DNA of 64,000 nt from a virus. Taxonomy: Duplodnaviria > Caudoviricetes. The notes beneath the pieces are model-generated. The model made no database searches. It saw only the letters and a list, made by a program, of their open reading frames with translations, and had not been told where the DNA came from. Positions 1 to 24,322 of the stretch are shown here, one piece after another. The stretch is from positions 11,097-75,096 of IMG/VR virus record IMGVR_UViG_3300049982_000337; one strand, 5' to 3'. Positions within the stretch are counted from its first letter, which is position 1. Every line of letters starts with the position of its first letter. The position numbers were made by a program, and so were the translations under genes.

Positions 1-342
1 CTTCTTGGCTTTCTGGTCGGCCTTCTTCTTCCAGTTCGGCGCGTGGATCAGGCTGATGTCCGACCCGACGCCGAACGAGAGGACATGGGCGGCGGAGCCG
101 ATGTCCATCGCTCGCGTCGGCGCCTTCTTGGTCTCCTCGTCTTCCTCGTCTTCGTCCGGCTCTTCCACGGTGAGCTTGGGGTGGGCCGAGGCGGCGTGGG
201 CCAAGCTCTCGTTGAGACAGAGCTTCGCCACGCTGGCGTTCAGCGAGGGCTCCGGGCAGGGATCGTCCCGATATGCCTCCACCGGCACGCCCAGATAGAG
301 GCCGGGTCCGTCGATCTTCCCGGTCCAGAGACGCGCCTCCAT
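1..342 (-). CDS. RecE/exonuclease VIII-like (PD-(D/E)XK, DUF3799-type) protein, 5' part only
   Basis: Not in the ORF track. My translation: MEARLWTGKIDGPGLYLGVPVEAYRDDPCPEPSLNASVAKLCL...MDIGSAAHVL. The Y..DP.P.PSL.AS and GSAAH motifs are typical of phage ExoVIII N-termini. TGATG-coupled to the upstream gene. Confidence 0.7.
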   Translation of the reverse strand, partial: MEARLWTGKIDGPGLYLGVPVEAYRDDPCPEPSLNASVAKLCLNESLAHAASAHPKLTVEEPDEDEEDEETKKAPTRAMDIGSAAHVLSFGVGSDISLIHAPNWKKKADQKAKK

Positions 343-1568
343 CAGGCGGCCTCGGCGGTTTTGGCCGCGATCTGCTGGCCGAAGTCGATGCTCGTGTAGG
401 GGATCAGCTTGGCCGAGATCGCGCGGACGACGTCCTTTGCGACCGCCTCGTCGAGCGTGCATTGCTCGATCAGCGCCTCCTTGACGGCGCGCATGATGGT
501 GGAGCGATGGGGGATGTCGGCCTCGCGCGCAGCTTGGACCTCGCGCTGGCGCTGGGCGGCGGCTTCCTGGTCACGTCGCTCAGCCACGATCCGGTCAGCT
601 TCTTGCTTCCTGGCCGCCTCTGCCTCGTCGGCCCGACGGCGCTCGGCCGCGAGTTCCGCCTCGTGCTCCTGGTCGCGCCGGCGCTGCTCTCCTGCCGCCC
701 GTTCCTCAGCGTCCCGAGCGGCGGTCGCGGCCGCCTGCTGGCGAGCTTCCTCGGCACGGACCTCGGCAAGACGGCTCTCTTCGGCGGCGCGTTCCTGTGC
801 CGCGATGCGGTCCCGCTCGGCCTGATCTTCACGCTCGCGCTCTAGGCGGGCGGTTTCCTCCTCCTCGAGCCGGGTGGCTTCACGCGCTTCGGCCTCGGCC
901 TTTTCGGCCGCCTCGCGGGCCTCGCGCTCCGCCACCTCGGCGCGCAGGCGCTCCAGCTCGGCGCGGTCGAGTTCCTCCTTGCGGAGCCGTTCGAGCGCTG
1001 CGGCCAGGACCGTCAGGGCGTTGTCGCGGCGCTGAGAGGCGAGGTCGAATTCGATTCCGAACAGAGTGGGGTCGAGATTGCGGCCCCTGACCTCTTCCAG
1101 GCGAGCCTCGACCGTTGCGGCCGTGTCTTCGATGGTGACGACGGCGGCGGACGTGAGCCCGGCGAGCTGATCCTTCGCCTGCGCGATTCGCGTCTCTTCG
1201 GCGGCTTCCCAGTCGCTCAGCGGTTTGCGAACCAGATCGCGGAGCACATCGAGCTTGTCTCGGATGGCCTTGCGAGAGGCGTCGACCTTAGCGGTCTGAC
1301 TGCGCCATTCCTCAGTTAAACCTTTGCCCGCGGCGTCGATCGCGGTCTTCGTCTTGGTGACCTTGAACGCCAGGGCGGCGATTGCTTTGCGCCCCTTGTC
1401 CGTCGTCACGTCCGGCACGTGGGCGTCGGTCTCTGCCTTCACCTTGGCGTAGAAGGCATCGAACTGCTCGGGGTCCGTCAGGACGGTCAGGGCGGTCTCG
1501 CGCTCGATCACCACGGCGACCTCAGTGGTGCGCTCGATGATCTGCGGTTCTTTGACGGCGACGTTCAT
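342..1568 (-). CDS. Conserved phage coiled-coil protein (often mis-annotated as TolA-like)
   Basis: VPDVTTDKGRKAIAALAFKVTKTKTAIDAAGK N-terminal motif followed by a long E/R/A-rich coiled coil. Confidence 0.75.
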   Translation of the reverse strand: MNVAVKEPQIIERTTEVAVVIERETALTVLTDPEQFDAFYAKVKAETDAHVPDVTTDKGRKAIAALAFKVTKTKTAIDAAGKGLTEEWRSQTAKVDASRKAIRDKLDVLRDLVRKPLSDWEAAEETRIAQAKDQLAGLTSAAVVTIEDTAATVEARLEEVRGRNLDPTLFGIEFDLASQRRDNALTVLAAALERLRKEELDRAELERLRAEVAEREAREAAEKAEAEAREATRLEEEETARLEREREDQAERDRIAAQERAAEESRLAEVRAEEARQQAAATAARDAEERAAGEQRRRDQEHEAELAAERRRADEAEAARKQEADRIVAERRDQEAAAQRQREVQAAREADIPHRSTIMRAVKEALIEQCTLDEAVAKDVVRAISAKLIPYTSIDFGQQIAAKTAEAA

Positions 1569-1777
1569 AGTGCGCTCCGATGGAAGAAGGCCTGGCCGGC
1601 GCCGGTGGCGCGAGCGGTGCAGGGGTGGGTGTGGACGACGTCGGCGAGACCGAGGTCTTCGAGACGGACGGCGGCCGAGAGGGGAATTTTGCGGCCGAGG
1701 GGCGCACCGGCGCTGCCGGCGGCGACCAGGATCCGCAGCGCGTCGTGCTCGGCGGGTTGGAGGTGCAGGACACCCAT
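1565..1777 (-). CDS. Hypothetical phage protein
   Basis: Coupled to both neighbours by stop/start overlaps. Confidence 0.55.
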   Translation of the reverse strand: MGVLHLQPAEHDALRILVAAGSAGAPLGRKIPLSAAVRLEDLGLADVVHTHPCTARATGAGQAFFHRSAL

Positions 1778-2001
1778 CAGCGAGCCGCCTGCAGTTGGCC
1801 GACCTTCAGGCCGTCGATGCCGCGCTTACCGGCGCCATCGAGCCAGCTCTGAAGCTCCTCTTCCGAGAGGCCGTACTTCGCGACCGCCAGGCCGAAGCTG
1901 ATGCGCCCGCACTGGACGTCGTTGACCACGTCGAGCTTCCGTCCCGGCGTCCAGCGCAGGTCCACTGTCGTCGCGTGATGAGCGGGCCAGGCGCTCGCCA
2001 T
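1777..2001 (-). CDS. sciP: SciP/DUF1153-like small HTH protein (CtrA-inhibitor homologue)
   Basis: RWTPGRKLDVVNDVQCGRISFGLAVAKYGLSEEELQSWLDGAGKRGIDGLKVGQLQ matches the SciP pattern RW..RRKAEVV.AV.GGL.SL.EAC.RY.L..EEF.SW......G..GLR....Q. Confidence 0.75.
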   Translation of the reverse strand: MASAWPAHHATTVDLRWTPGRKLDVVNDVQCGRISFGLAVAKYGLSEEELQSWLDGAGKRGIDGLKVGQLQAAR

Positions 2002-2002
2002 C

Positions 2003-2245
2003 TCAGTGACCGCCCTCGATCAGCTCTTCGACGGACAGCCAGGCATAGACGTCACGGGGCGCGGGCAGGGGCGCCGAGGCCGGCGGGTAGACCTGAGGCG
2101 CGGGGACTGCGGGCTTGCCCGTCCAGGCCATCAGGCGCGCGCCGATGCTGCCCTTGTGACGGAAGGTCCGGCCATGGGGCTCGACGTCGTCCAGCCGGAA
2201 CGCGGCGAGGTCCATGGTCTGCACGGTGGCGCGACCGAGGCTCAC
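2003..2245 (-). CDS. Hypothetical phage protein
   Basis: In-operon ORF with a 4-bp overlap to the upstream gene. Confidence 0.55.
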   Translation of the reverse strand: MSLGRATVQTMDLAAFRLDDVEPHGRTFRHKGSIGARLMAWTGKPAVPAPQVYPPASAPLPAPRDVYAWLSVEELIEGGH

Positions 2246-2508
2246 GACGCTGGCCCCGTGATCCGCACGGTCGCGCCCTTAAGCAGACCCTTGCAGACCG
2301 CGCCCTTGACGCGGGTGCCGTTGGCGCCAGTTGCCTCGAAGGTCCGCGTCCAGCCCTCCTTGTCGGAACAGCCGAACCACGAGTTGCCGCCGAGTTCGAC
2401 CTGGGTGAAGCCCATGGCGTGGGTCGCCTGCAGGGCGGTGCTCTTTCGCACCTCGCAGCCGCCGAGGGCGACGGCAGCGATGGCAATGATCGCCAGCCGT
2501 TGCATCAC
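2242..2508 (-). CDS. Putative small lipoprotein
   Basis: N-terminal hydrophobic stretch and lipobox ALGGC; C-terminal GAVCKGLLKGATVR. Confidence 0.65.
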   Translation of the reverse strand: MMQRLAIIAIAAVALGGCEVRKSTALQATHAMGFTQVELGGNSWFGCSDKEGWTRTFEATGANGTRVKGAVCKGLLKGATVRITGPAS

Positions 2509-2711
2509 CGCGTACCCTCGGCGACGACCGGCCGGCCACCGCCGCGCGAGTTCTGGCCACCGGTCTTCCCGGCCGCGGCGGCGAGGTCGCGGTCCTTGGC
2601 GAAGCTGCGTTTCTCACCGGGCACGCTAGCCCCGCCCTTACGGGCGATCTCGGTGCGACGCTCGACGGTCATGCCGGCGAATCCGCGCTTGGACTTCGTG
2701 GTGGTGCTCAT
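2505..2711 (-). CDS. KGG-repeat general stress protein (YciG/GsiB/Con-10-like)
   Basis: From ATG 2711: MSTTTKSKRGFAGMTVERRTEIARKGGASVPGEKRSFAKDRDLAAAAGKTGG. RGFA.M...R..EIARKGG is the KGG signature. Confidence 0.85.
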   Translation of the reverse strand: MSTTTKSKRGFAGMTVERRTEIARKGGASVPGEKRSFAKDRDLAAAAGKTGGQNSRGGGRPVVAEGTR

Positions 2712-2938
2712 AGCGGTAGGGTCTCCTGGGCTGTCTCGAAGGAGAGGCGCATGGCCTCGGTGAGCTGATCGACCTTGTGCTTGGCCTGGGCGCGGGCGCG
2801 CTCGGTGGCCTGCGGGTCCTTGGATGCGGCGAGGTGCTGGGCCAGGGCCGAGGTGCATTGCCCCTTGGTCAGCCGCTGGCCGCTCGAATGGGTGACCCAG
2901 CCCGAACCCATTCCGTAGAAGAACGGGCCCTTGCTCAT
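2708..2938 (-). CDS. Hypothetical phage protein
   Basis: MSKGPFFYGMGSGW...; ATGA overlaps on both sides. Confidence 0.55.
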   Translation of the reverse strand: MSKGPFFYGMGSGWVTHSSGQRLTKGQCTSALAQHLAASKDPQATERARAQAKHKVDQLTEAMRLSFETAQETLPL

Positions 2939-3066
2939 CCCGGCAGTCCCGCGAGACCGCCCATCCACATGACGATCTGATAGAGGCCGGCGGCGATCAC
3001 GAGCGCGCTGACGGCGTTGTAGGTGATGCGCTCCAGGCGCGTGGGTGCGGGTTCGCGGCGGCGCAT
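2935..3066 (-). CDS. Small membrane peptide (43 aa)
   Basis: Not in the ORF track: MRRREPAPTRLERITYNAVSALVIAAGLYQIVMWMGGLAGLPG. Coupled at both ends. Confidence 0.55.
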   Translation of the reverse strand: MRRREPAPTRLERITYNAVSALVIAAGLYQIVMWMGGLAGLPG

Positions 3067-3254
3067 CAGGCGCGCCCCTGCAGCGCTAGCGCCGCTTCGA
3101 TTTTGACCCTCTCGGTATTGGCAATCGCGCCGACGCCGACGATCAGCAGAATGGCCATGGCGGCGGCGTAGATCGCAGCCCGCCCCCTGGCCTTTTCGCA
3201 GAATGCGTTGATTGCCCGGCAGAACGCGTAGCCGGCGAAGAACAGCGAGAACAT
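3066..3254 (-). CDS. Small membrane protein
   Basis: Two hydrophobic segments; TGATG coupling. Confidence 0.55.
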   Translation of the reverse strand: MFSLFFAGYAFCRAINAFCEKARGRAAIYAAAMAILLIVGVGAIANTERVKIEAALALQGRA

Positions 3255-3478
3255 CAGGACTGGCCCTCCGCTTCGACCGGCGCGTAGTCGAGCGCCGTCG
3301 GGTGGCTGGGCGAGGCGAAGTTCTGCCCGTCGAACCGCACCATGACGTGGTGGCCCTGGGACGGGTTCTCGCGGGCGATGGTCCCGAAGGAGCGCGGCCC
3401 TTTCATCTCCGGGTGGCGCACACGGGCGCCGACAACCGGGTTCACGCCGTAGGTGCGCTTGACGTAGTCGTAGGCCAT
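3254..3478 (-). CDS. Hypothetical phage protein
   Basis: MAYDYVKRTYGVNPVVGARV...HPTALDY, a small phage-type ORF; TGATG coupling. Confidence 0.65.
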   Translation of the reverse strand: MAYDYVKRTYGVNPVVGARVRHPEMKGPRSFGTIARENPSQGHHVMVRFDGQNFASPSHPTALDYAPVEAEGQS

Positions 3479-3867
3479 CAGGCGTGTTCCTTCTGGCCGA
3501 GCGCCGCTTCGAGCTTGGCGATCACAGGGTCGATGTCGGTGGCGAGGAAGGCCGCGGTCTCGGCGTCTAGGGTTTCGAGGACGGGCTCGAACGTCGCCGG
3601 GTCGAGGACGCGCGCGCTCGAGATCAGCTCCGACCGATCGGCCTTGATGATCGCTAGGGCCAGGGTTGCAGCGTCGACCAGCGCGGTGTTCTCAGCCACC
3701 ACGTGGTGGAGATCGCTCGCAAGAACCGTTGACCCGCCCGGCCCGTAGGACCGAACCAGCGCCTCCATGTACGAAGAGCGAGGCGAAGAGAGAGCCGCTT
3801 GCAGCTTCTTGACGCGCGCAAGCCTGTTCCGCGGAACGTCCAGCTTGCTGTTGAAGGTGGAGGACAT
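3478..3867 (-). CDS. Hypothetical phage protein
   Basis: In-operon ORF; TGATG coupling. Confidence 0.6.
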   Translation of the reverse strand: MSSTFNSKLDVPRNRLARVKKLQAALSSPRSSYMEALVRSYGPGGSTVLASDLHHVVAENTALVDAATLALAIIKADRSELISSARVLDPATFEPVLETLDAETAAFLATDIDPVIAKLEAALGQKEHA

Positions 3868-4628
3868 CAGGCGGCCCTCTGAACGTCGAAGGAGATAAGG
3901 ACGGTGTTGACCCCGGTTCCGGCCTCGCGGAACGATCCTTCAGGCAGGTGCTCGCAGGTGCCTCGATTGCCGTCGACGAGGTCGCGGACCGCCCGATAGT
4001 GCGCAGTCTCGCGGAAGGTCACGGCAGCGCTCATAATGGCGACCAACCGCCCGCCCGGCCTCAGCATCTTCACCGCGTGCAGGACGTGAAGGGCGTCCTG
4101 CTGCTTCGCGAATGGCGGGTTCATGATGACGCGGTCGAAGCGGTCGGTGGGCCCCATCGTCATGAAGTCTTGTTCGTGGACACGACACTCGAGGGCGAAC
4201 TCCGCCCTAAGCTTCTCCGCGGCTGTGCTGTCGAGCTCGCACGCCTCGACCAGTGCGCCCGTGGCCAGCGCAGGGCGGATTAGCGCTCCACCGCCAGCGC
4301 TGGGCTCCAGGACAAGATCGTCCGCACAGATCTCCGCCGTTGCCACGACGCGCGCAGCCAGCTCGGCGGGGGTGAAGAAGGCTTGAAAGTCCTGCTTCCG
4401 GTTCGTGATCTCGCCGGTCAGCAGGATGGGATCGATGGCGTCGGCTGCATTGATCGCAAAGACGTGGGCACCAGCCTTCCGGTCCCACTTGCCGCCGGCC
4501 AGCTCCAGCGCCTTGTTGGTGGCGACGTAGAGCTTCCGGTCGAGGGACGCTGGCAGGTGTAGAGCCGTCCCGTCTGTGATGGAGAGATCGAGGACCTCAA
4601 GGACCTCGTGGGAAAGTCGCAGGGCCAT
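3867..4628 (-). CDS. DNA adenine (N6) methyltransferase
   Basis: True start is probably ATG 4628 (MALRLSHEV). FFTP, VLEPSAGGG (motif I) and VIMNPPF (motif IV), in gamma order. Confidence 0.9.
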   Translation of the reverse strand: MALRLSHEVLEVLDLSITDGTALHLPASLDRKLYVATNKALELAGGKWDRKAGAHVFAINAADAIDPILLTGEITNRKQDFQAFFTPAELAARVVATAEICADDLVLEPSAGGGALIRPALATGALVEACELDSTAAEKLRAEFALECRVHEQDFMTMGPTDRFDRVIMNPPFAKQQDALHVLHAVKMLRPGGRLVAIMSAAVTFRETAHYRAVRDLVDGNRGTCEHLPEGSFREAGTGVNTVLISFDVQRAA

Positions 4629-4990
4629 CAGCGCGCACCCGGCAGGCTGTAGGACGCGAGGTCCGCGGCCAGCAGGCTGAAGTCGACGCGGTGCTCCAGC
4701 AGCGTGGCCTGGACGTCGAGATTGAAGGCGCGGGTTTCGAGGTCGAGGCAGCAGGCGAGGGCCTGGGCCTGCAGGTCGTCGAAGTGGGCGGCTCGCTCTG
4801 TTTCGCCGCGGCGCCGGGCGCCAGCGGCCTTGCCCGCATACTCGGCCTCGGCCTCCATCACCTTCTCGGCCCGATGGTTCAGATCGGCGGCTTCGAGGCG
4901 GTAGAGCGCGGCGATCTCGGCGCGGTTGCTGACAGCAGCCGGCGAGGTGCGGGCGCGGAAGCGGGCGAGTTCTATGACGGCCCCCATCAC
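4628..4990 (-). CDS. Hypothetical helical protein
   Basis: Coupled ORF in the leftward operon. Confidence 0.55.
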   Translation of the reverse strand: MMGAVIELARFRARTSPAAVSNRAEIAALYRLEAADLNHRAEKVMEAEAEYAGKAAGARRRGETERAAHFDDLQAQALACCLDLETRAFNLDVQATLLEHRVDFSLLAADLASYSLPGAR

Positions 4991-5307
4991 GCCGCCGCCC
5001 GAACTTGCCGAGCGCCGGTGTACGCGCCGGAGAGAGAGGGGCGAGCCGCGCGTTCATTGCAGACCAGATCACCGACCGTGACGGTGAGGGCGTCCAGGGG
5101 CATCCGGCGTTGCCGGTTCATCCAGGCGCCCCAAAGCTTCGACACTTCAGCGTCCGACAGATCGGAGAGCGTGGCCGGAGCCGCTTCCACTGCCAGATCG
5201 GCGAGGTGGGCGTTCAGCAGGTCCGAGTTGAAGACCGAGACCTTACCGGCGATCAGGCGTTCGCCTGGGCGGCAGATCGAAGCGGTTGGGGTGGTGTCGC
5301 TGGGCAC
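4987..5307 (-). CDS. First gene of the leftward (pL) operon, hypothetical
   Basis: GTG start at 5307 preceded by a GGAG RBS, just downstream of the left operators. Confidence 0.55.
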   Translation of the reverse strand: MPSDTTPTASICRPGERLIAGKVSVFNSDLLNAHLADLAVEAAPATLSDLSDAEVSKLWGAWMNRQRRMPLDALTVTVGDLVCNERAARPSLSGAYTGARQVRAAA

Positions 5308-5336
5308 GTTGTCTCTCCGGTGTTGGAGAGAGAATA

Positions 5337-5381
5337 TACGGAGTTTCGTAGATCGCAATTGGGAAAATACGAAACATCGTA
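5337..5381. promoter_or_regulatory. Left operator OL: two 14-bp TACG-N6-CGTA sites (5337-5350, 5368-5381)
   Basis: TACGGAGTTTCGTA and TACGAAACATCGTA; the same sequences recur between cI and cro. Confidence 0.85.
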
Positions 5382-5507
5382 GATTTCAAAGTGCTCGGCG
5401 CAAAGCGTAGCTGCGACAGGAGCGGACGCAGGCCATACACGTCAGCGTTGACTTGGCGCACGCGGACGGGAATCAGTCGTTAACACTTGAGGGAGGGGAT
5501 GCCCGAT

Positions 5508-5765
5508 ATGACGCGTCGCACCGTCTACTGCGTTCAGACCTACAGCCACCGGGCCTGCGTCCTCGTGGCAAGCCAGATAGAGCGGTTCCGCAGTGAGACC
5601 GAGGCGACCAGGCAGGCAAATTATCTAAGGCCACGAGTGTCTGGCGGCGTCATCTTCAGTCAGGAGGTCGATCCCGAGTTCGACGTCCTCGGCGAGCCGT
5701 GCCTGCTTGCTGCATATGGGGAGTTGCCCGAAGGTGCCCGACTAGGCGTGGGGACGGCGGGGTAA
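5508..5765 (+). CDS. Hypothetical protein in the immunity region, convergent with cI
   Basis: GGAGG upstream; MTRRTVYCVQTY...GEPCLLAAYGELP. Confidence 0.6.
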   Translation: MTRRTVYCVQTYSHRACVLVASQIERFRSETEATRQANYLRPRVSGGVIFSQEVDPEFDVLGEPCLLAAYGELPEGARLGVGTAG

Positions 5766-5812
5766 GCAGGCCGGTACAATCAGAGCGCACAAATGGCGAA
5801 CGAGGAAGCCGG

Positions 5813-6337
5813 CTAGCCGTCAGTGCCAGTGAAGGTCCTCAGAACCTTGATGGCTTGCTGCTGGTTTTCGGCAGGCACGGTGCTGGCGAGCGCCACGATG
5901 TCCGATTTGGCGAGTGCCGGCGACTTGAAGAGGTTGCCCTCGTTGGTCCCAAAGAGTGGCGCTAAACGCCGCATCCATTTTCCAGTGAGATCGATTTCGC
6001 CGGCCTCGAGTTGCAAAACCACCTGGACAGAAGTCTTCAAAGCGGCGGCTACGTCCTCGACAGTAAGCCCGGCTTCCGCTCGCCATTCGCCGATATGGTT
6101 GGGCTCAAGCTCGGCATCGACGACGGGTGCCGCACCGAAGATGGCTTCGACGGACACCCCATAGGCGCTGGCAATGCGCGCCTCCAGGTCACCCTTCATG
6201 CTCGCTGTTGGCTTCGCGGCGTAGGAGTTGATCGTCGACGGTGTGACGCCAACCCGCGTCGCGATCCGATTTGGGTTCAGGCCGTTGGCGGCCATCCAGG
6301 CCAAAAAGTTCGCGTGGCGACGGGCGGCAAGATCCAT
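5813..6337 (-). CDS. cI: CI-like prophage repressor with two XRE-type HTH domains
   Basis: Start at ATG 6337 (MDLAARR). HTH1 LNPNRIATRVGVTPSTINSY; HTH2 WRAEAGLTVEDVAAALKTSVQVVLQLEAGE. Divergent from cro. No S24 peptidase domain seen. Confidence 0.85.
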   Translation of the reverse strand: MDLAARRHANFLAWMAANGLNPNRIATRVGVTPSTINSYAAKPTASMKGDLEARIASAYGVSVEAIFGAAPVVDAELEPNHIGEWRAEAGLTVEDVAAALKTSVQVVLQLEAGEIDLTGKWMRRLAPLFGTNEGNLFKSPALAKSDIVALASTVPAENQQQAIKVLRTFTGTDG

Positions 6338-6357
6338 CGCTATTATCTGCCCCAAAA

Positions 6358-6419
6358 TACGAAACTCCGTAATGACGATGTTTCGTAGTTTGAGCTTGCG
6401 GGTTCTACGAAACATCGTA
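6358..6419. promoter_or_regulatory. Right operator OR: three 14-bp sites (6358-6371, 6374-6387, 6406-6419)
   Basis: TACGAAACTCCGTA, GACGATGTTTCGTA (reverse complement TACGAAACATCGTC) and TACGAAACATCGTA, between the divergent cI and cro starts. Confidence 0.85.
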
Positions 6420-6430
6420 GATTGCGGCTC

Positions 6431-6652
6431 ATGTCAGACGTCGCCCGCGCCATTCAGAACATCGAAGCCGTTGCCGAAGAGCTAGGGCTCGCGGAATTCG
6501 CCCGCGAGGCGGACGTCCCGTACACGACCGCAGCCGATTGGAAGTCGCGCGGTTGGCGTCCGAAGTGGGTGGTGACGCTGGAGAAATTCGCAGCGGCTGC
6601 CGATCGCCGACGCGCGCCTGAAGCATCACCAACCCAGGATGCCGCAGCGTGA
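6431..6652 (+). CDS. cro: Cro-like HTH protein
   Basis: LGLAEFAREADVPYTTAADWKSRGW HTH; first gene of the rightward operon. Confidence 0.8.
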   Translation: MSDVARAIQNIEAVAEELGLAEFAREADVPYTTAADWKSRGWRPKWVVTLEKFAAAADRRRAPEASPTQDAAA

Positions 6653-6837
6653 GCGAGCTCCAGGCAATCGCGCTGTGCATCGCGTTCGGGTCGCTCGGTC
6701 ACGCCATCGGATCGATAATCCTGATCCGCGAGATCAGAGCTTTGGCGGAGGCCCTGTCTCTCACGGTCACCATCAGCACCGCTGACTTGAAAGGCGCCTT
6801 CGACCAGACGTGTACCGACGCGAAGAGCCGGCCATGA
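6649..6837 (+). CDS. Small hydrophobic hypothetical protein
   Basis: GTGA-coupled to cro; overlaps an opposite-strand ORF. Confidence 0.45.
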   Translation: MSELQAIALCIAFGSLGHAIGSIILIREIRALAEALSLTVTISTADLKGAFDQTCTDAKSRP

Positions 6838-7178
6838 TTGTCCTTGCCCATTCGGCACGTCACCGCCCGCATGGAGAGCCAATCTCCGTCGATGGACTTC
6901 GTCCCATTCGGGAGGGTCTTCGTCGCGCCGCCGCCGGGCAGCAAGAACAGTTTCTTTGGCCAAAGGCCTGTGACGATCAGCTGACCCTCGAGGATCTGGC
7001 CTTGCGCGTCGTAGATGACCTCTATGCCGCACATCTTCTCGTTGAGGCGGGAGCCGAGCAGCGAGAGCTGTCGCGAGTGCCGTCGATAGGCGCCAAGCGC
7101 CAAGCGACCGACCTGGATCGCGATGGTCACCACGGCCGCAATTCCGGCTACGCCCGTCCAGTCGAGGTTCATGCTCAA
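6699..7178 (-). CDS. Hypothetical membrane-anchored protein (antisense moron)
   Basis: N-terminal TM (VAGIAAVVTIAIQV) followed by a globular beta-rich domain. Confidence 0.5.
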   Translation of the reverse strand: MSMNLDWTGVAGIAAVVTIAIQVGRLALGAYRRHSRQLSLLGSRLNEKMCGIEVIYDAQGQILEGQLIVTGLWPKKLFLLPGGGATKTLPNGTKSIDGDWLSMRAVTCRMGKDNHGRLFASVHVWSKAPFKSAVLMVTVRDRASAKALISRIRIIDPMA

Positions 7179-7663
7179 GCATCAGTCATGGCCTCGCTCA
7201 TGTCGAGCACGGCCTGACCGATGCCGCGGGGGGCCTTCACCGACATTCGAGATCACGCGCGGAGGGTCCTGACAGCGCCCCCCGCCCAGCCTGCCGCGCG
7301 TGTGGCCCTCGGCCGTGTATTGGCCGGGGGTCTTCCATTCCTGAGATCGTGGCTTCCGGCGTCGAGCCCGGCTGGCTGCGTTTCACGGCCGGCCAGCCAT
7401 GCCCGGACGTGTGTGAGGCAGGCCCGCAGCGCTCGCCGCGGGCCTGCTGAACTTCTCCAGGGTTCCCGCCCTGAAGCATGGCCGGCGCATTCCCAGCGCC
7501 TTCCAAAAAAACCGCGTGCCCTGGCGTTCTCGCGCCTTGCACGTCGTCTCGTCTCGGTCCTGACCGCTATCCCAGCACGTCAGGGCCGCATCAAACATCT
7601 CCGTATCGAACTCCCTATCCATGACGCGTCCCCCCGGGGCGCCGCCCTTCGTCGTGCTGAAAC

Positions 7664-8107
7664 ATGACGGACCTGATGATGGAAATCTTCGATGGAGTTG
7701 GGGGAAGACGCCCCCTTCCTCGCCTCCCGCGTGAGCTGCGGAAGGCCATCGCCACCTATGTGGCGATCCACGCTCCGAGAGGCCGCCGCAAGTGGGCGGA
7801 GGAGCGCTGGGGCCTCACCTCTGACCAGGCGCGAAGCGTCTGCGACGGCACCGCCTCGCTGAGCACGCTCCAGGTCATCTTCAAACACCCGAATGGCGGC
7901 TGGGCCCTGCTGATCCCGGTCATGGGCGCCGTCATCGGCCAGGAACTCGACGACTTCATCCAAGACGAACGGAAACGCCATGTCGAAGACGCCCTTCGCT
8001 CCGATGCGCTGGGCCGCGATCTGCGCGCTCTGGCTCCTGGTGGCCCTGGTGCTGCCTCCGAGCTGGCTTCTGCGCCAGACCGGTCGTGGAGGGCTCGCAG
8101 TGGCTGA
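7664..8107 (+). CDS. Hypothetical phage regulator (CII-position gene)
   Basis: HTH-like RKWAEERWGLTSDQARSVCDG; position after cro. Confidence 0.55.
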   Translation: MTDLMMEIFDGVGGRRPLPRLPRELRKAIATYVAIHAPRGRRKWAEERWGLTSDQARSVCDGTASLSTLQVIFKHPNGGWALLIPVMGAVIGQELDDFIQDERKRHVEDALRSDALGRDLRALAPGGPGAASELASAPDRSWRARSG

Positions 8108-8251
8108 AATCGCCCGCGACGGCATCCGGCGCCTTCGGGGGCCTCCTGCTCAGAGAACATACCGGGATCGGTGATCGCTCAGCGAGCGACCCGCCCACAC
8201 CTTAAACCCCACCGGCCGCGGGGATGAGCGGTCTGAAGAGAGGAGGGCGGC

Positions 8252-8944
8252 ATGCCCCGCTCCAAGACGGCGAACGACGACCGACCAGCGACGATCCCGA
8301 ATAAGCAAGAGCGTGCTGACCTGCTGAGCCACCACATGGTTCTCCTGCGCGCCCAGGAAGTCCGCCTGGCCAGCAAGAAGGCCGAGCTCGACGAGCTGCG
8401 GGCCGAATACTCCGAGGAGCAGCAAACCCTCACCGACCTCTTCCTTCAGGCCAAGTCCGACACCCGCATCGAGCGCCAGATGCTCGAGCGCGCCCTGAAG
8501 GTCGAGAAGTCCGGCGTCCGTGCGGCGCATAAGGAGGCCGCGGATTGGAACTTCGTCTGCGAAGCCCTGGGCTATCCCTACCAGCCGGATATGTTCGGCA
8601 CCGACGCCACGCCCGAACCGGCGAAGGACCTCCTTTTCTGGGAGGCTGAGGGCTACCTCAACGGTCGTCGCGCCGGCGATCCCGCGGCGCCCAAGGGCTG
8701 CACCGGCGAAGCGCTCCAAGCGTTCCTGAAGGGCCGAGACAAGGGCCAAGCAGAGAACGGCCTGGCTCTCGGCCGCGCCAAGAACGTCATCGAGGCGAGG
8801 GCCACGCCCTCCGTCGAGCCGCCCGTCGACCTCAACTCTGAGGAAGGCCAGGAGGCCATCGACGACGCGGCGAAGAAGCTCAAGAAGAGCGACTTCATGA
8901 AGACCGGCGGTGACGACGCCGGCGCCCAGGCGAGCGCCGCCTGA
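8252..8944 (+). CDS. Putative GapR/DUF2312-like protein with an acidic C-terminal extension
   Basis: Strong GAGGAGG RBS. EEQQTLTDLFLQAKSDTRIERQMLERALKVEK...EAADWNFVCEALG resembles the GapR pattern EI...IKEVYAEAKG.GFD.K.L..VV..RK.......E.A..DLY..A.G. Confidence 0.5.
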   Translation: MPRSKTANDDRPATIPNKQERADLLSHHMVLLRAQEVRLASKKAELDELRAEYSEEQQTLTDLFLQAKSDTRIERQMLERALKVEKSGVRAAHKEAADWNFVCEALGYPYQPDMFGTDATPEPAKDLLFWEAEGYLNGRRAGDPAAPKGCTGEALQAFLKGRDKGQAENGLALGRAKNVIEARATPSVEPPVDLNSEEGQEAIDDAAKKLKKSDFMKTGGDDAGAQASAA

Positions 8945-9363
8945 TGCGCGCTCCGGCCATGCGCGGTTTCAAGGCCGCCCCGATTAAGGAGGTCAGCCTC
9001 CACATGACGGTCGCGGCGCTGATCCGGCGCGCATGGCCGGAGCATCTGCCCTGGTGGCACACGCCGAACGGTGAGCAGCGGGACAAGCGCGTCGCCGGCA
9101 AGCTGAAGGGCATGGGCGTCCTGGCGGGCGTGCCCGACCTCATCTTCATCATGCCCAACGGGCAGGCGTCGTTCATTGAGCTGAAGCGGAAAGGAGAGGG
9201 CCTCTCAGCAGACCAGCTGGTGGTTCACGACAAGCTGCGCGCGCTGGGCTGCGCCTACGAGACCTGCCGGACGCCCGAGGAGGTCGAGGACGTCTTGGAG
9301 CGCTGGCTTGGAGCCTTTGGCCTGACCCTGCGCTGCCGCATCATACGCCCGAGGGCGGCATGA
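8944..9363 (+). CDS. VRR-NUC domain nuclease
   Basis: WWHTPNG...GVLAGVPDL...FIELKRKGEGLSADQ (PD-(D/E)XK). Confidence 0.9.
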   Translation: MRAPAMRGFKAAPIKEVSLHMTVAALIRRAWPEHLPWWHTPNGEQRDKRVAGKLKGMGVLAGVPDLIFIMPNGQASFIELKRKGEGLSADQLVVHDKLRALGCAYETCRTPEEVEDVLERWLGAFGLTLRCRIIRPRAA

Positions 9364-9947
9364 GCGCCCCGGCCGCCACGAGCAACTCACCAGGCTCCAC
9401 TTCGCCAGCCCGCCTGAACGCCCATCGCGCCATGGCACAATCCGCCGGCTGGAACGATGAACGGATTGAGCATCTCAAGAAAGAGTGGGCAGCAGGTCGG
9501 TCTGCGAACCAGATCGCCGCGGATCTCAAGCTCACGCGCAATGCCGTGATCGGAAAGGTTCACCGCCTTGGCCTCAACAGGCGCAGCGGATCGCCGGAGC
9601 CTCGCCGGATGCACATGGCCGCGCCGCGCCCCAAGGTGGCGAAGGCGCCCCAGCCGAGACCGCAGCTCATGATCGCGAGCAATGGGTGTGTCGTCGAGAA
9701 GGCCGAGCCCAGACCGCCGCGTGTCCAGATCCCGGCTCGTGTCGAGGGACCGGGTTCCGCGACTCTGCTGACCGTCGGCGCCCACATGTGCAAGTGGCCG
9801 ATCGGCGATCCGATGGACAAGGAATTCACCCTCTGCGGCCGCGGCCGCGAGCGCGGGTCCTACTGCGCTTCCCATGCCGCCCTGGCCTATGCACCGGCGT
9901 CGAGCACACCCAAGGAGCTGATGCGCGGCCTGCGGAGGTACGTATGA
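9360..9947 (+). CDS. gcrA: GcrA cell-cycle regulator homologue
   Basis: GWNDERIEHLKKEWAAGRSANQIA...TRNAVIGKVHRLGL N-domain and LLTVGAHMCKWPIGDP...FTLCG...GSYCASHAALAY C-domain. Confidence 0.93.
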   Translation: MSAPAATSNSPGSTSPARLNAHRAMAQSAGWNDERIEHLKKEWAAGRSANQIAADLKLTRNAVIGKVHRLGLNRRSGSPEPRRMHMAAPRPKVAKAPQPRPQLMIASNGCVVEKAEPRPPRVQIPARVEGPGSATLLTVGAHMCKWPIGDPMDKEFTLCGRGRERGSYCASHAALAYAPASSTPKELMRGLRRYV

Positions 9948-11422
9948 GCGGCCGCGCCCAGGGCGGAGGTTGCGTCACCGCCCTCTCCGCCGAGAACATC
10001 GCTGCGGCCCTCGTCATCTCGGCCAAGGTATATGGCGACGCGACGTTAAAGGCGGTCGCCGCCAAGAGCGGGATCCTGAGACGATCCCTGCCACCGGCTT
10101 GCGTTGGCCTGCATCTGGCCACCGGCGCGCCGATCGCGCGGGTGGCCGCGCTGATCGGCCTCAGCCATCGCAACGTCATTACCGCTCGCACCAACGCGGA
10201 CGGCCGTTTCACGACGGCGGTTGAGCAGGTGATGGCCGCGCTCGGCGCAACAGAGACCGAAAAGCCGTCCAGACCGCGACCTTGCCCGCCCGTCGAAACC
10301 GTGGCGCCTGTTACGGCGCCTTCGCCGAAGCCGGTGACGCCGAAGGATCGACCGCAGATCGCGGCGCAGTTCGCCGACCTTCGCCGCGTCCAGGACGACC
10401 TGGTCATCAAGGCAATCTCGGTCGCTTCGACCGCCAGTGCAGATGGCTACGCCTACCTAACCCTTGGCGCTCTCGCGGTAGCCACGGACGTGCCCAAGGG
10501 CAGCATCCTCTTCGTGGTTCGGCGGCTGGTCGAGGCCGGCCGGCTTGAAGTCCGCAAGGTGGACACGGCCAAGGGCGAGGTCAGGCAGCCCAATGGTTAC
10601 CGCGTGGCCGACATGGGCCGTGCGGATCCGATTCAACAGCCTTCATCTCAGGTCGCCGCTTGTGCGCCCCCATCGTCTCCCCGGGCAGCGCCTGAGGAAC
10701 GGGCACCCGCGATCCTCGATGGCAAGGTCTCGTCGGTCGACCGCCTTCTCGCCGCGATGCGCGCCGTGGCGACGCCGGATGGCCGGGCCTTCGTGGTTCC
10801 ATTGGAGATCTGCGCGGTTGCCCAGGTCCTGTGGACGAGCTGGGACACCCTGAAAGGCAAGCTGATAGCTCGAGGCGACCTCAAGCTCATCCTTGCGGGG
10901 AAGGTCGATCAGCCCTGGACGTTCTGGGTCTCGACCGGCGAGCGGGGACGGGCGCTGGCGGCTGCCGAGCCAGCCGCGGCCCCTAAAGCTGCACCTCCGC
11001 CGCCGGCCCCGGCCGCGCCGGCGCCGGCCCGCACGGTGGCGACGCGACCGGTCCCGGCTGTTCGGCCCCCGGGCCCGAAGGCGGAGCCCTGGCTTGAGCA
11101 GCGATCGGTTGTGCCGGCCCGCGCACGTCAACACGAGCCGGAGACCCCGACGCTGCCGGTCCCGCCGCGTGCTGACGCCGCGCTTGGGCTGGACGAGTGG
11201 GACGATGGCAAGCCCGGGCCCAAGGCGCTGCGCCACCTGAAGGCTCACGCCTGCCGGTGGCCGATCGGAACGCCGAAGCCGGGCTATGCCGATGAGCAGC
11301 TCTTCTGCGCCGCTCGCGCGCCGCTCGACGAACCGTACTGCGCCCAGCACCAGCCGATGTCCCGCCAGCGCGGGACGTCGCTCACCAAGCCGAAGGCGGC
11401 GCCAACCCGGACCATGCAGTGA
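9944..11422 (+). CDS. Multi-HTH protein with a C-terminal GcrA-type Cys domain
   Basis: Start at ATG 9944 (ATGA overlap). Several winged-HTH-like segments; C-terminus LKAHACRWPIGTP...LFCAA...PYCAQH. Confidence 0.7.
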   Translation: MSGRAQGGGCVTALSAENIAAALVISAKVYGDATLKAVAAKSGILRRSLPPACVGLHLATGAPIARVAALIGLSHRNVITARTNADGRFTTAVEQVMAALGATETEKPSRPRPCPPVETVAPVTAPSPKPVTPKDRPQIAAQFADLRRVQDDLVIKAISVASTASADGYAYLTLGALAVATDVPKGSILFVVRRLVEAGRLEVRKVDTAKGEVRQPNGYRVADMGRADPIQQPSSQVAACAPPSSPRAAPEERAPAILDGKVSSVDRLLAAMRAVATPDGRAFVVPLEICAVAQVLWTSWDTLKGKLIARGDLKLILAGKVDQPWTFWVSTGERGRALAAAEPAAAPKAAPPPPAPAAPAPARTVATRPVPAVRPPGPKAEPWLEQRSVVPARARQHEPETPTLPVPPRADAALGLDEWDDGKPGPKALRHLKAHACRWPIGTPKPGYADEQLFCAARAPLDEPYCAQHQPMSRQRGTSLTKPKAAPTRTMQ

Positions 11423-11628
11423 GCGACGAGATCAACGATGAAGCCGCCGCGATCGTCGGTAAGGCCTGCTCCGAGGCGAGAAGCCCCCCCGCTATGGCGG
11501 CGGCTTTGGCACGGATCGCCGGCAATGCCTTCGCCCGCTTCACGAGCCATGACGACGCCTTCTTGCTGCACACCAAGCGGGCTCGGGAGCACCAGCTGCG
11601 CATGGGCCAGAAGAGGCACCTGCGATGA
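11419..11628 (+). CDS. Hypothetical protein
   Basis: Coupled ORF. Confidence 0.5.
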   Translation: MSDEINDEAAAIVGKACSEARSPPAMAAALARIAGNAFARFTSHDDAFLLHTKRAREHQLRMGQKRHLR

Positions 11629-11870
11629 AAGCCTGGGTCGTCCCAATCGAGGCCGTCAGGGCCAGCGCCACGCTGATGGGGGCCCGGGTTCTGGCCCGGC
11701 TCGCGGGGGAGGGCGCAACGCTCCACCCGAACGCCACCGTCCAGCTCCTGCCGACGCAGGGCTACATGGCCACCGTCACCTATGTCGCCCAGCCGCGTGC
11801 GGAGCGCCAGTTCGCCGCCACCATCCCGCTGGAATGGGCGCCGCGCGAGAACCAGGCGGCGACCGCATGA
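11625..11870 (+). CDS. Hypothetical protein
   Basis: Coupled ORF. Confidence 0.55.
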   Translation: MKAWVVPIEAVRASATLMGARVLARLAGEGATLHPNATVQLLPTQGYMATVTYVAQPRAERQFAATIPLEWAPRENQAATA

Positions 11871-14368
11871 CCGACACCTATCAACAGCTCTTGGAAGACA
11901 AGGCCTGCCCGGCGCCGTCGACTGGCTTCCATGTTGAGCTCGACGAGCTGCATCCCTGGCTGAAGCCGCATGTCCGCGCCATCGCGCAATGGGGGATCGC
12001 CGGCGGCAGCCGCGCCTTCTTCCTCGCCTACGGGCTCCACAAGACGTCGCTGCAGCTGGCGGTGACCAGCACGATCGTCGAGCGCAAGGGTGGCGCCGGG
12101 CTGATCGTGGCGCCTCTCGGGGTCCGCGACGAGTTCTTCGGCGACGCCGCGACGATGGGCATCGACTTGCCGTTCATCCGCTCGAACGCCGAGATTCGCG
12201 ACGGCCAGGTCAACCTCGCCAACTATGAGAGCGTCCGGGACGGCAAGATCGACCCGCGGCTCTTCACGGCGACGTCGCTGGATGAGGCCGAGGTCCTGAG
12301 GAGCTTCGGGTCGAAGACCTATCAGGAATTCCTCCCGGCCTTCGCCGAGGTGCCCCACAAGTTCGTCGCGACCGCCATGCCTTCGCCGAACCGCTACAAG
12401 GAGCTGATCCACTACGCAGCGCATCTGGGCGTCATGGACAGCGGCCAAGCCCTGACGCGCTTCTTCGGGCGCAATAGTGAGAAGGCCAACGACCTCACCC
12501 TCTACCCGCACAAGGAGGAGGAGTTCTGGCTCTGGGTCGCGTCCTGGGCAATCTTCCTGCAGAAGCCCTCCGACCTCGGCTTCAGCGACGAGGGCTATAT
12601 CCTGCCGCCTATGGAGGTGCGCTGGCACGAGGTGCCGGCTGACCTGCGCGACAACACCCCGGAGAGCAACGGCCAGCTTCGCCTGATCCGCGACGCCGCC
12701 GTGGGCGTCCAGGGCGCCGCGCGCGAGAAGCGGGACACCCTGACGACCCGCATCGCCAAGATGAAGGAGCTGCGCGAGGCCGAGCCGGAGAACCACTTCA
12801 TCCTCTGGCACGACCTCGAGGATGAGCGCCGGGCTATCGAACAGGCGATTCCGGCGGCCGTCAGCGTCTACGGCTCGCAGGACATCGAAGACCGGGAAAA
12901 GGTGGTCAAGGCCTTCAAGGCCGGCACGATCACCGACCTCGCCGCCAAGCCGGTGATGCTGGGCGCCGGCGGCAATCTCCAGCGGCACTGCCACCGGGCG
13001 ATCTTCGCCGGCATCGGCTTCAAGTTCCGGGACGTCGCCCAGGCCTGGCACCGCCTCCAGCGGTTCGGCCAGGAGCACCCGGTCGTCATCGACATGATCT
13101 ACGCCGAGACCGAGCAGGAGGTGCGCCGGTCCTTCGAGGAGAAGTGGGAGCGCGACCGCGTCATGCGCGAGCGCATGAGCGAGATCATCCGGACCTATGG
13201 GCTCGGCAAGATCTCGACGGCCGTGGCGATGCGGCGGTCCATCGGAGTCGAGCGCGAGGAGGCCAGCGGCGAGGGGTGGTCGGCGATCAGGAACGACTGC
13301 GTCGATGAGGCCCGGCGGATGGACGACGACAGCGTCGGCCTTATGGTCACCTCGATCCCATTCGGGACGCAGTACGAATACTGCGAGAGCTACAACGACT
13401 TCGGCCACAACGACGACAACGCCGGCTTCTTCCGCCAGATGGACCATCTGACCCCGGAGCTGCTGCGGATCCTGCAGCCGGGCCGGATTCTGGCCGTCCA
13501 CGTCAAGGACCGGATCATCTTCGGCGCCGTGAGCGGCCTGGGCTTCCCCACCGTGGAGCCCTTCCACGCCGACTGCATCGCCCACTACACCAAGCACGGC
13601 TTCGCCCTGATCGCGGTCCGACCCATCGAGACCGACGTAGTTCGGGAAAACAACCAGACCTACCGCCTCGGCTATTCGGAGATGCGGAAGGACGCGACGA
13701 AGATGGGGGCCGGCTCGCCGGAATATGTCCTCTTCTTCCGGAAGCCGCAGACCGACCAGAGCCGCGGCTATGCCGACATCCCGATCACCAAGGCGGTCGA
13801 GGAATACAGCCTGGCCCGCTGGCAGATCGACGCCTCGGCCTTCTGGCGCAGCAGCGGCGACCGCATGCTGACGACGCGGGAGCTGGCCGCCATGCCGCCC
13901 CAGGTGCTGGCCAGGACGTTCAAGGCCCACTCGGAGCGGACCGTCTACGACCACGACGCCCACGTCGAGATCGCCGAGGCCCTGGCCGACCGGAAAGCCT
14001 TGCCGAAGACCTTCTCGGCCGTGGCCCTCGGCTCGCCGTCCGGCCAGGTCTGGACCGACATCGTTCGGATGCGGACCCTCAACTCGGAACAGTCGCTCGG
14101 CGGCCGTGAGAAGCACGTCTGCCCGCTCCAGATCGACGTCGTCGACCGGATCATCCGGTTCTATTCGAACAAGGGCGACCTCGTCTTCGACCCCTTCGCC
14201 GGCCTCTTCACGGTGCCGGTCCGAGCCTTGATGCTCGGCCGCCGCGGCGGGGGTAGCGAGCTGCACGACGACTACTGGCGCGATGGCGTTCGCTACCTGC
14301 GGATCGCCGAGCTCGAGGCCAACGCTCCGACGCTTTTCGACTTCCTGGAAACGGGGGAAGCTGCGTGA
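11867..14368 (+). CDS. SF2/SNF2-like helicase - DNA methyltransferase (N4/N6 family) fusion
   Basis: Start at ATG 11867. GLHKT Walker A-like, SLDEAE, ATAMPSPN, helicase-C GAGGNLQ/HRLQRFGQ. MTase VTSIPF (motif IV variant) precedes VFDPFAG (motif I). Confidence 0.88.
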   Translation: MTDTYQQLLEDKACPAPSTGFHVELDELHPWLKPHVRAIAQWGIAGGSRAFFLAYGLHKTSLQLAVTSTIVERKGGAGLIVAPLGVRDEFFGDAATMGIDLPFIRSNAEIRDGQVNLANYESVRDGKIDPRLFTATSLDEAEVLRSFGSKTYQEFLPAFAEVPHKFVATAMPSPNRYKELIHYAAHLGVMDSGQALTRFFGRNSEKANDLTLYPHKEEEFWLWVASWAIFLQKPSDLGFSDEGYILPPMEVRWHEVPADLRDNTPESNGQLRLIRDAAVGVQGAAREKRDTLTTRIAKMKELREAEPENHFILWHDLEDERRAIEQAIPAAVSVYGSQDIEDREKVVKAFKAGTITDLAAKPVMLGAGGNLQRHCHRAIFAGIGFKFRDVAQAWHRLQRFGQEHPVVIDMIYAETEQEVRRSFEEKWERDRVMRERMSEIIRTYGLGKISTAVAMRRSIGVEREEASGEGWSAIRNDCVDEARRMDDDSVGLMVTSIPFGTQYEYCESYNDFGHNDDNAGFFRQMDHLTPELLRILQPGRILAVHVKDRIIFGAVSGLGFPTVEPFHADCIAHYTKHGFALIAVRPIETDVVRENNQTYRLGYSEMRKDATKMGAGSPEYVLFFRKPQTDQSRGYADIPITKAVEEYSLARWQIDASAFWRSSGDRMLTTRELAAMPPQVLARTFKAHSERTVYDHDAHVEIAEALADRKALPKTFSAVALGSPSGQVWTDIVRMRTLNSEQSLGGREKHVCPLQIDVVDRIIRFYSNKGDLVFDPFAGLFTVPVRALMLGRRGGGSELHDDYWRDGVRYLRIAELEANAPTLFDFLETGEAA

Positions 14369-23054: not shown

Positions 23055-23431
23055 CGTGCCCGGCCGCCCTCGTCGACCGCGCCACAACTTCCGAGGCCTG
23101 CCGATGGCCCGCGCAAGTATCCGCATCCGGGTCGAGATCGAGGCGGTTCAGGACGCGACAGACGATCTGGCGCGGGCGCATCAGAAGCTGGTCCGCCGGC
23201 ATGGCGCGGAGTTTCGCCTACTGGAGCGCGACATCAAGGGGGCATGGAGCGGCTCATCAGTTCGAAGCCGATCTGCCACGACCTCGGCGAAGGTTATCTA
23301 GTCATGACCTGCCCAGAGGAAGCTTCGGCTCTGCTGCTGAGGGCGCGACGCCTGGGCGTGATCTGATCCGCCCGCATCGGGCCGATCTCTCCAGGCCGGA
23401 AGGCGGAGAGCCCTCGCGATAGAGGTCCACC

Positions 23432-23713
23432 ATGCACAGCTCTCGATATTTCGGCTTCCACCTCGGTCTGGCTCTGATCAGCACCTTGGGCCACGCGTTC
23501 AACGCCGCGGTCACCGCCGTCTGCCGAACCCTCGACCTAGCCTTTCCGCCGCAGGCCGCGGCCGAGCGCCTGGCGCCCCAGACCGTCACCAGTTCTGAAG
23601 CCGTAGTCTACGGCGCCGGCAAAGCCCGCACCCGTTCGTTCCTCGGCCGCCTGGCCCAGCGCGACAACGAGCGACAGGCGTTCGGCGCCCTGGGCCTGAA
23701 CCCGGCCTTTTGA
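23432..23713 (+). CDS. Hypothetical protein
   Basis: AGAGG RBS; followed by a CGCCCCGGC/GCCGGGGCG hairpin. Confidence 0.55.
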   Translation: MHSSRYFGFHLGLALISTLGHAFNAAVTAVCRTLDLAFPPQAAAERLAPQTVTSSEAVVYGAGKARTRSFLGRLAQRDNERQAFGALGLNPAF

Positions 23714-23878
23714 TCGGCGCCATAGAGCGCTCAGACACCATTCGCCCCGGCCTCACCGCCGGGGCGTTTCCCCATCGCGCCCAGAGCAGCACTTCACCCG
23801 AAGGATGGCGAGCGACACCGGTGAACTCGACCGGCCGACCTCAGCTCATGGACAGAGGCCCGCATCTGCGGCGCGACC

Positions 23879-24322
23879 CTAACCGCCCCCCTTAAGTAGC
23901 AGGGCGATGATGGCGACTATGACGCCGCCCAGGCCGGTAACGGCCGAGAGCCACGCGATCTTCGTCTGGCTGGCCTCATGCTGCTCCCGCCTCAGTCGTG
24001 AACGCAAGTGTGCGATGGTCTCACGCGACAGCGCACCCCACCGGCTCTCGCCGTCGTGCCATGTGGCGTCGTCGGCGTAGTCCGGCGGCGGCAACATGAG
24101 GCGCTCGGTCTCCGCCAAGAGCCGGTTGCCCTGTAGCTTAGCGATGCCCACCACGTGGATTTCATCCTCGCTTTGACGCTCCCAACTGAGCGTCTCGACC
24201 TTGTGCGATCGGGGACCGTGCTGCACCTTCGCTGCATCGATCAGCCGGTCGTACATTTCTTCCGTCTTACGCCGCGCGAGCTGCAGCTTCCGCAGGCGCC
24301 ACCAGTAGATCAGCGCTTCCAT
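23879..24322 (-). CDS. Hypothetical protein with a C-terminal TM (antisense moron)
   Basis: Start at ATG 24322 after GGAGG; C-terminal WLSAVTGLGGVIVAIIALLL. Confidence 0.65.
   Translation of the reverse strand: MEALIYWWRLRKLQLARRKTEEMYDRLIDAAKVQHGPRSHKVETLSWERQSEDEIHVVGIAKLQGNRLLAETERLMLPPPDYADDATWHDGESRWGALSRETIAHLRSRLRREQHEASQTKIAWLSAVTGLGGVIVAIIALLLKGGG

Follow-up and report, generated by a model that had tools for sequence, protein, structure and literature searches.

An IMG/VR provirus carries in its early region a short gene whose 74-amino acid (aa) product is a member of a widespread, phage-borne group of hairpin-less SciP-family (DUF1153) proteins; both its homology to SciP and its missing N-terminus are real. 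In comparison with chromosomal SciP it is predicted to be a minimal family member, consisting of the three-helix helix–turn–helix (HTH) core alone and lacking the N-terminal β-hairpin present in all chromosomal SciP proteins. A role directed at CtrA, the master regulator of the cell cycle that SciP silences in the host, whereby the phage protein would impose SciP-like repression, is plausible albeit tentative. Few bacterial cell-cycle circuits have been studied as well as the one with CtrA, GcrA and SciP at its core, and it is still disputed whether SciP operates by binding CtrA or by binding DNA. Phage copies of GcrA and CtrA are known, and a full-text literature search, which also covered DUF1153, found no published description of a phage SciP. 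The phage-borne hairpin-less DUF1153 proteins are an unnamed group that is defined in the present analysis.

The DNA analysed here, referred to as the window, is a 64-kb stretch that corresponds to bases 11097–75096 of the 75,096-base provirus. The provirus has a tyrosine integrase at its left end and also encodes a DUF4055 portal, a MuF protein, a P22-type coat protein, DnaB and an endolysin, all of which bear out the phage context previously claimed for the gene. The closest relative of the portal (60% identity) resides in a prophage of a Caulobacterales MAG, which makes it likely that the host, too, belongs to this order. The 74-aa gene lies ~3 kb into the early-left operon (Table 1), which runs on leftward, beyond the window, into an exonuclease-like ORF and an AAA_24 ATPase. 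The early-left promoter is probably situated in the 5072–5813 intergenic region, downstream of the repressor-like gene. Elsewhere in the window, the gene at 8252–8944 (plus strand) gave no Pfam match at E <= 0.01 and has homologues in two of the related proviruses described below (G203 and G204), while a second DNA methyltransferase, a 976-aa N6_N4_Mtase protein, is encoded in the right operon at 11438–14368 (plus strand) alongside the cell-cycle regulator homologues.

Table 1. Features of the window that bear on the short SciP-like gene, with their positions and the evidence by which they were assigned
Feature	Position	Strand	Basis
74-aa gene, hairpin-less SciP-family (DUF1153) HTH protein	1777..2001	-	profile matches, codon signature, AF2 model
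Residues 16-74 equivalent to SciP 35-93; residues 1-15 a non-conserved leader	74-aa protein		
Junction with upstream gene: its TGA, 1 base, then the ATG of the 74-aa gene	2002..2020	-	sequence read directly
Early-left operon holding the 74-aa gene; small ORFs tightly packed or overlapping	342..5072	-	ORFs, profile matches
phrog_1376-family gene just downstream of the 74-aa gene	342..1568	-	phrog match
N6 DNA methyltransferase in early-left operon	3867..5072	-	profile match
Repressor-like protein with two HTH domains (XRE/HTH_3 type)	5813..6415	-	profile matches
Full-length GcrA homologue, early-right operon	9360..9947	+	PF07750, 138.7 bits
492-aa protein with GcrA C-terminal-like domain, early-right operon	9944..11422	+	PF07750, 35 bits, aa 374-478

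The earlier note on this DNA had described a minus-strand ORF with the SciP core and without the host N-terminal segment; its coordinates and its length of 74 aa are exactly as claimed, and the DUF1153 match and the short frame agree with the description. The ORF shows the codon signature of the real genes in this 67% GC DNA (GC3 0.86, GC2 0.49). In a six-frame search, the stop-to-stop frame around it comprises just 80 codons; the absence of the N-terminal segment is therefore not the result of a mis-called start, and a longer form is impossible. Read directly from the sequence, a Shine–Dalgarno-like GAGGG is found 11 nt upstream of the ATG, and at the distal end the TGA shares a base with the ATG of the next gene in a TGATG overlap. 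The arrangement of these junctions suggests that the gene is translationally coupled to both of its neighbours, and no terminator-like sites were detected on the minus strand across 1–8600. The dN/dS ratio between phage homologues is ~0.4–0.6; the short SciP-like gene is under constraint and evolves much faster than chromosomal SciP.

The significant family matches of the protein are confined to DUF1153 and NF051866. Pfam DUF1153 (PF06627) is matched with 47.2 bits (E 2.5e-12; cut-off 23.5 bits; 45.5 bits in the six-frame search), whereby residues 16–73 occupy profile positions 29–86 of 87, so the profile is not covered in full. The NCBIfam model NF051866 ‘CtrA inhibitor SciP’ is matched with 50.9 bits (E 1.3e-13), residues 16–74 falling on positions 32–90 of 90; this is short of the equivalog cut-off of 100 bits, whereas two canonical SciP proteins run as controls reach 144.7 and 117.4 bits. 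The protein is thus a member of DUF1153 and not a SciP equivalog, from which it departs in score, hairpin, Leu52 and genomic setting alike. It fits the phage hairpin-less group in its RWT-type core, the absence of the hairpin segment, a polar residue at SciP position 52 and its location in a viral genome.

For comparison, canonical SciP sequences were taken straight from the DNA of 35 Caulobacterales and Rhodobacterales loci. These proteins share the N-terminal motif YVIGPxGxPLTxxDLP, in which G20, D27 and P29 are invariant. A 93-aa Caulobacter-type SciP (L036:1501-1779:-) served as the reference, with T24 in ‘PLT’, R35-W36, R40-K41 and T65; this numbering is consistent with the published SciP hypomorphs T24I and T65A (PMC4083442). 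The alignment of the phage core with the reference is gapless and reaches a common C-terminal end, with 34–39% identity to Caulobacterales SciP and 37–47% to Rhodobacterales-type SciP, and profile–profile comparison of the short forms with canonical SciP gave a probability of 99.8%. The 15 N-terminal residues of the phage protein are unrelated to the SciP segment and are not conserved among its relatives. The label ‘N-terminally truncated SciP homologue’ holds in one sense and fails in another: the protein is a phage-borne homologue of the core without the N-terminal segment, but its gene is no shortened version of the host sciP, given the 34–39% identity, the failed equivalog cut-off and the large and diverse set of naturally short forms.

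AlphaFold2 predicts three helices for the 74-aa protein (19–31, 36–43 and 47–60; mean pLDDT 78). In canonical SciP the same helices are preceded by a β-hairpin with strands at 13–16 and 22–24 (pLDDT ~87–91); since this hairpin is modelled with confidence, the part missing from the phage protein is a structured element and not a floppy tail. A Foldseek search of the PDB ranked the DUF1153 structure 2oa4 first and 2jrt fourth, and CENP-B, Brinker and transposase DNA-binding domains are among the nearest folds. All E-values exceed 0.5 and DUF1153 and generic HTHs score alike, hence the fold comparison is not discriminating. The earlier note had named a generic transposase- or TrpR-like HTH as best structural match, combined with a lack of CtrA interaction, as the outcome that would speak against its reading; the top match is 2oa4 instead, but CENP-B- and transposase-type HTHs score about the same. 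The same two structures, 2oa4 (SiR5 of Silicibacter pomeroyi) and 2jrt (RHOS4_12090 of Rhodobacter sphaeroides), are the best PDB matches at the sequence level (E 8e-8 and 1.7e-4, respectively); they represent proteins of 95–101 aa with no published function, in which ~31 N-terminal residues have no counterpart in the phage protein.

Residue by residue, the phage protein shares with the 93-aa SciP of C. crescentus and other Alphaproteobacteria (NF051866; PF06627) the three-helix HTH core and the C-terminal end, and retains R35, W36, R40, K41, G51, A58, Y62, L64, E67, E68, W72, G80, L84 and R93. It differs in the absence of the hairpin (SciP residues ~13–29, including T24), in the replacement of Leu52 by Arg and of Val37 by Thr, in the loss of T87 and Y92, and in its setting in a prophage early operon, in contrast to the single chromosomal gene with a CtrA-dependent promoter that encodes SciP. 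Ten of the eleven canonical-invariant residues (R35, W36, R40, K41, L52, E67, E68, W72, G80, L84 and R93) are thereby kept, the exception being L52. The R16/R21 pair of the phage protein is equivalent to R35/R40 of SciP, which are reportedly needed for CtrA binding, and S46 occupies the position of T65. A comparison of 33 hairpin-bearing with 135 hairpin-less cores places these features in a wider context: R35, W36, R40, K41, G51, A58, E68, W72, G80 and L84 are conserved in both groups, whereas position 52 is Leu in 94% of the hairpin-bearing proteins and polar or variable (Arg, Glu, Ala or other) in the short forms, with Arg33 at this position in the 74-aa protein. Positions 37, 38 and 50 also differ between the groups. 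On the simplest reading, Leu52 would pack against the hairpin and have become a surface residue once the hairpin was lost. Judged by position 52 and the AF2-modelled hairpin, the hairpin-less forms are a genuine structural subclass. The net charge of the core was considered as an indicator of DNA binding, but its values in the two groups overlap completely and it was dropped as a discriminator. For 140 family members (76 columns), the maximum-likelihood tree is unresolved, with two well-supported branches only, and therefore gives no answer as to whether the phage forms are a single clade or where they branch from SciP.

Short forms of this kind are numerous. When 1.84 billion representative proteins were searched exhaustively with phmmer, 218 relatives emerged at E <= 1e-3, none above 51% identity; many of them are 64–77 aa in length and carry an ‘RWTPGRK’-type motif with almost nothing N-terminal of it. 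Several clusters of 69–75-aa DUF1153 proteins, with 50–195 members each, are present in the ESM Atlas. Three proviruses (G203, G204 and G206) encode a short homologue of 41–53% identity directly upstream of a phrog_1376 homologue, which is the sole neighbour to keep its position beside the SciP-like gene in all three, and their other operon genes are 30–80% identical to those of the window. IMG/VR was furthermore scanned with a back-translated DNA pattern (W-T-x3-[RK]-K, 25 codons, [EDA]-E-[LF]-x2-W), which matched 54 stretches; 44 are true family members, 38 of them distinct. The hairpin segment is present in just three of these 38 RWT-type genes; the pattern demanded Thr after Trp and thus favoured short forms, so this figure is not proof that phages never carry full-length SciP. 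The neighbours of the short gene are diverse across the 38 viral loci, and several of the IMG/VR records that carry one are complete genomes with direct terminal repeats.

Amongst cultured-phage records, tblastn found no homologue at E <= 0.01. A weak match (E = 0.6) to gene XM05_97 of Erythrobacter phage XM05, annotated as hypothetical, was confirmed by Pfam as a 64-aa DUF1153 protein (65 bits, profile positions 29–87) that also passes the HTH_Tnp_1 cut-off. It has the same architecture as the 74-aa protein, with a profile match from position 29, and an alphaproteobacterial host, yet the two share only ~30% identity and the 152-kb XM05 record offers a different genomic context. All named relatives are from Alphaproteobacteria or their phages, and the plasmid or chromid matches are likewise alphaproteobacterial (15 of 15). 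On chromosomes, DUF1153 occurs in 200 of 201 Caulobacterales genomes (130–146 bits) and in exactly one copy in 197 of the 201, in keeping with the prior description of SciP as a chromosomal gene normally found once per genome; this count holds without G045, the one unpublished genome among them, and the rare extra chromosomal copies are divergent. Smaller searches added little: a word-based homologue search returned the 74-aa protein itself only, two single-protein locus scans yielded one canonical SciP and nothing, respectively, a metagenome scan gave mostly canonical Rhodobacterales SciP, and the clusters of the ten nearest homologues yielded neither names nor taxa. Apparent relatives from Hymenobacter proved spurious, being open frames of ~480 aa without a family HMM match.

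The provirus encodes two GcrA-related proteins in its early-right operon (Table 1). G203 and G204 likewise encode GcrA homologues, and the same holds for 10 of the 35 other viral records in which a short DUF1153 gene occurs, i.e. for about a third of the other carriers, a raw proportion that is not set against any background rate; phage XM05 gave no match to GcrA. Virus-borne cell-cycle regulators already described are based on the same idea of a phage copy of a host regulator that presumably resets the state of the host: GcrA homologues are known, for example gp222 of phiCbK-like phages (PMC3556154), and phages both encode CtrA homologues and use CtrA through CtrA-regulated phage promoters (PMC9437464). 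Neither study reports a SciP homologue, SciP serving in the latter only as a binding-motif control, and the phage SciP copy described here differs from those regulators in being reduced and not full-length. In the DNA of the 64-kb window there is no CtrA box (TTAA-N7-TTAA), the two one-mismatch sites being at chance level, and the SciP motif TGTCGCG is not in excess (18 copies versus 22 expected). Around the promoters of this temperate phage, too, there are no DNA words of the CtrA or SciP type. TTAA half-sites number 23 in the whole 64 kb and are scattered; single ones lie at 5480 (TTAAC) and at 8202, in two intergenic zones likely to hold early promoters. Four TGTCGCG copies on the minus strand are clustered within ~900 bp at 23154–24030 (~0.3 expected), in a low-coding stretch before the terminase region, and have no shared flanking context.

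Beyond what is observed (the homology to SciP, the architecture, the persistence of the gene in related phages and its occurrence alongside GcrA), we infer CtrA binding, a direction of its effect and a benefit to the phage as follows. As an accessory gene of the early-left operon, the SciP-like gene would be expressed after infection or induction. Through the conserved SciP surface, including R16 and R21, its product might then attach to the CtrA of the host at promoters that CtrA activates, and alter their output. In combination with the phage GcrA homologue, this could push the cell towards an S-phase-like state in which the GcrA programme is on and the CtrA-activated division, motility and pilus genes are off, a state that would favour phage replication. 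Consistent with a CtrA-directed role, DUF1153/SciP are the sole significant families of a protein that aligns with SciP without gaps and keeps the family-wide core residues, including the Arg pair, with a Ser in place of T65. The coupling to neighbours, the conserved operon position in the three related proviruses and the dN/dS ratio indicate that the gene is functional; GcrA homologues occur on its own prophage and in other carriers; and the named relatives stem from Alphaproteobacteria and their phages and plasmids, the Erythrobacter phage included. Precedents are provided by phage GcrA (PMC3556154), by phage use of CtrA (PMC9437464) and by SciP itself, the over-expression of which blocks motility through CtrA (PMC4083442). 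Turnover of SciP is known to be Lon-dependent (PMC8545394), and no description of a degron in SciP was found in the literature examined. Against a CtrA-directed role stand the failed equivalog cut-off (51 versus 100 bits) with the low identity to Caulobacterales SciP, the loss of a hairpin that matters to SciP activity, the missing CtrA boxes and SciP motif excess in the window, and structural matches that do not tell DUF1153 apart from HTHs of the transposase type. Moreover, DNA binding or the folding of a generic HTH could equally be what the conserved Arg, Trp and Lys residues serve.

The last point leads to the main rival explanation, possible but on the whole rather unlikely, according to which the protein is a sequence-specific DNA-binding regulator that works independently of CtrA and adjusts early or late transcription of the phage by direct contact with operators in phage or host DNA. 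Small HTH genes of phage early operons are usually regulators, and the predicted three-helix fold with CENP-B, Brinker and transposase domains nearby, as well as the HTH_Tnp_1 match of the XM05 homologue, are in agreement with such a function. SciP itself is proposed to bind DNA at TGTCGCG, with a ChIP signal at a subset of promoters (PMC4083442), but this published motif shows no excess in the 64-kb window. The 74-aa gene is, furthermore, positioned mid-operon among accessory ORFs and not at a regulatory junction; its varied neighbours across the 38 viral loci fit a movable accessory gene better than an operator-tied core regulator, and the invariant Glu pair that starts the third helix is common to SciP. 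The HTH similarity has a second possible source, namely that the gene encodes an accessory protein of an insertion sequence or transposase (IS3 or IS66 OrfA-like) that lies in the prophage by chance. The weak HTH_28 and HTH_Tnp_1-type similarities and the fact that PF06627 also has a match (E <= 0.01) in E. coli, used as a control genome, speak for this origin, which is nevertheless very improbable: HTH_28 stays below its cut-off (22.6 versus 25 bits) and SciP/DUF1153 is the best profile by far, which places the protein outside the transposase-type HTHs, the gene is coupled to phage ORFs on both sides, and no transposase ORF or inverted repeats were noted beside it.

Loss of the hairpin itself gives rise to a further reading. 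The hairpin matters to SciP activity, as the hypomorphic mutation T24I lies inside it (PMC4083442), and a hairpin-less protein may therefore not repress. Such a protein could instead be a dominant-negative, anti-SciP mimic that occupies the SciP-binding surface of CtrA, fails to block the recruitment of RNA polymerase and thus relieves SciP repression in swarmer cells. The retention of the SciP core residues alongside the lost hairpin and the weakened repression by T24I would fit, and phages that enter via pili or flagella meet SciP-rich swarmer cells (PMC3556154). The effect of T24I could, however, be on repression, stability or folding, and Leu52 is not kept, with several surface positions near it also unlike SciP, so that the CtrA interface may not be preserved; we regard the mimic as improbable. 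Even less credible, and scarcely to be entertained, is a decaying and functionless remnant of a captured host sciP. The protein is indeed shorter than that of the host gene, strongly diverged and fairly fast evolving (dN/dS ~0.5), but its ORF is intact and coupled to its neighbours, dN/dS is below 1, the same position is conserved in proviruses whose flanking genes are 50–70% identical, and dozens of independent viral short forms keep the invariant core.

As a group, hairpin-less SciP-like proteins could conceivably be widespread, undescribed phage effectors that bind CtrA directly and, often paired with phage GcrA, reprogramme the host for lytic growth by turning CtrA output down and the GcrA programme up, a generalisation we put forward with some reserve. 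As direct CtrA-binding effectors, they would be the first virus-encoded proteins to modulate CtrA activity and would represent a naturally occurring minimal module for CtrA binding. Binding of CtrA by such minimal proteins would imply that temperate and lytic alphaproteobacterial phages routinely target the CtrA switch; it would show how little of SciP is enough for CtrA to be recognised and amount to a natural experiment on the role of the conserved N-terminal hairpin. Should CtrA not be bound, the protein would be an ordinary small phage HTH regulator of common ancestry with SciP.

Several further arrangements of DUF1153 genes came to light in the surveys. Full-length, hairpin-bearing SciP-like genes are found on IMG/VR contigs (L094/L142, L125 and L137); they may stem from flanking host DNA where proviruses were over-extended, or else be genuine full-length copies carried by phages. 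One Caulobacterales genome has a second, divergent DUF1153 copy (L044, G020:C3:6028-6237; 35 bits, 93-aa frame) in a 45% GC stretch that is foreign DNA or contamination. A GC content of 45% is also seen in a complete 60-kb phage genome with direct terminal repeats (L048/G205), whose 76-aa short DUF1153 gene starts at the motif (‘MRFTAARK’) and lies ~5 kb from a sub-threshold GcrA-C-like match of 21 bits. In IMGVR_UViG_3300021560_000003, a complete phage genome with direct terminal repeats, two DUF1153-like genes (L112 and L139) are located ~1 kb apart, and one of them opens a 508-codon frame that has a long Pro-rich extension. Finally, the DUF1153 core forms the C-terminus of seven proteins of 125–167 aa (P0004, P0025, P0051, P0052, P0023, P0033 and P0036), the N-terminal ~65–108 residues of which are unrelated.
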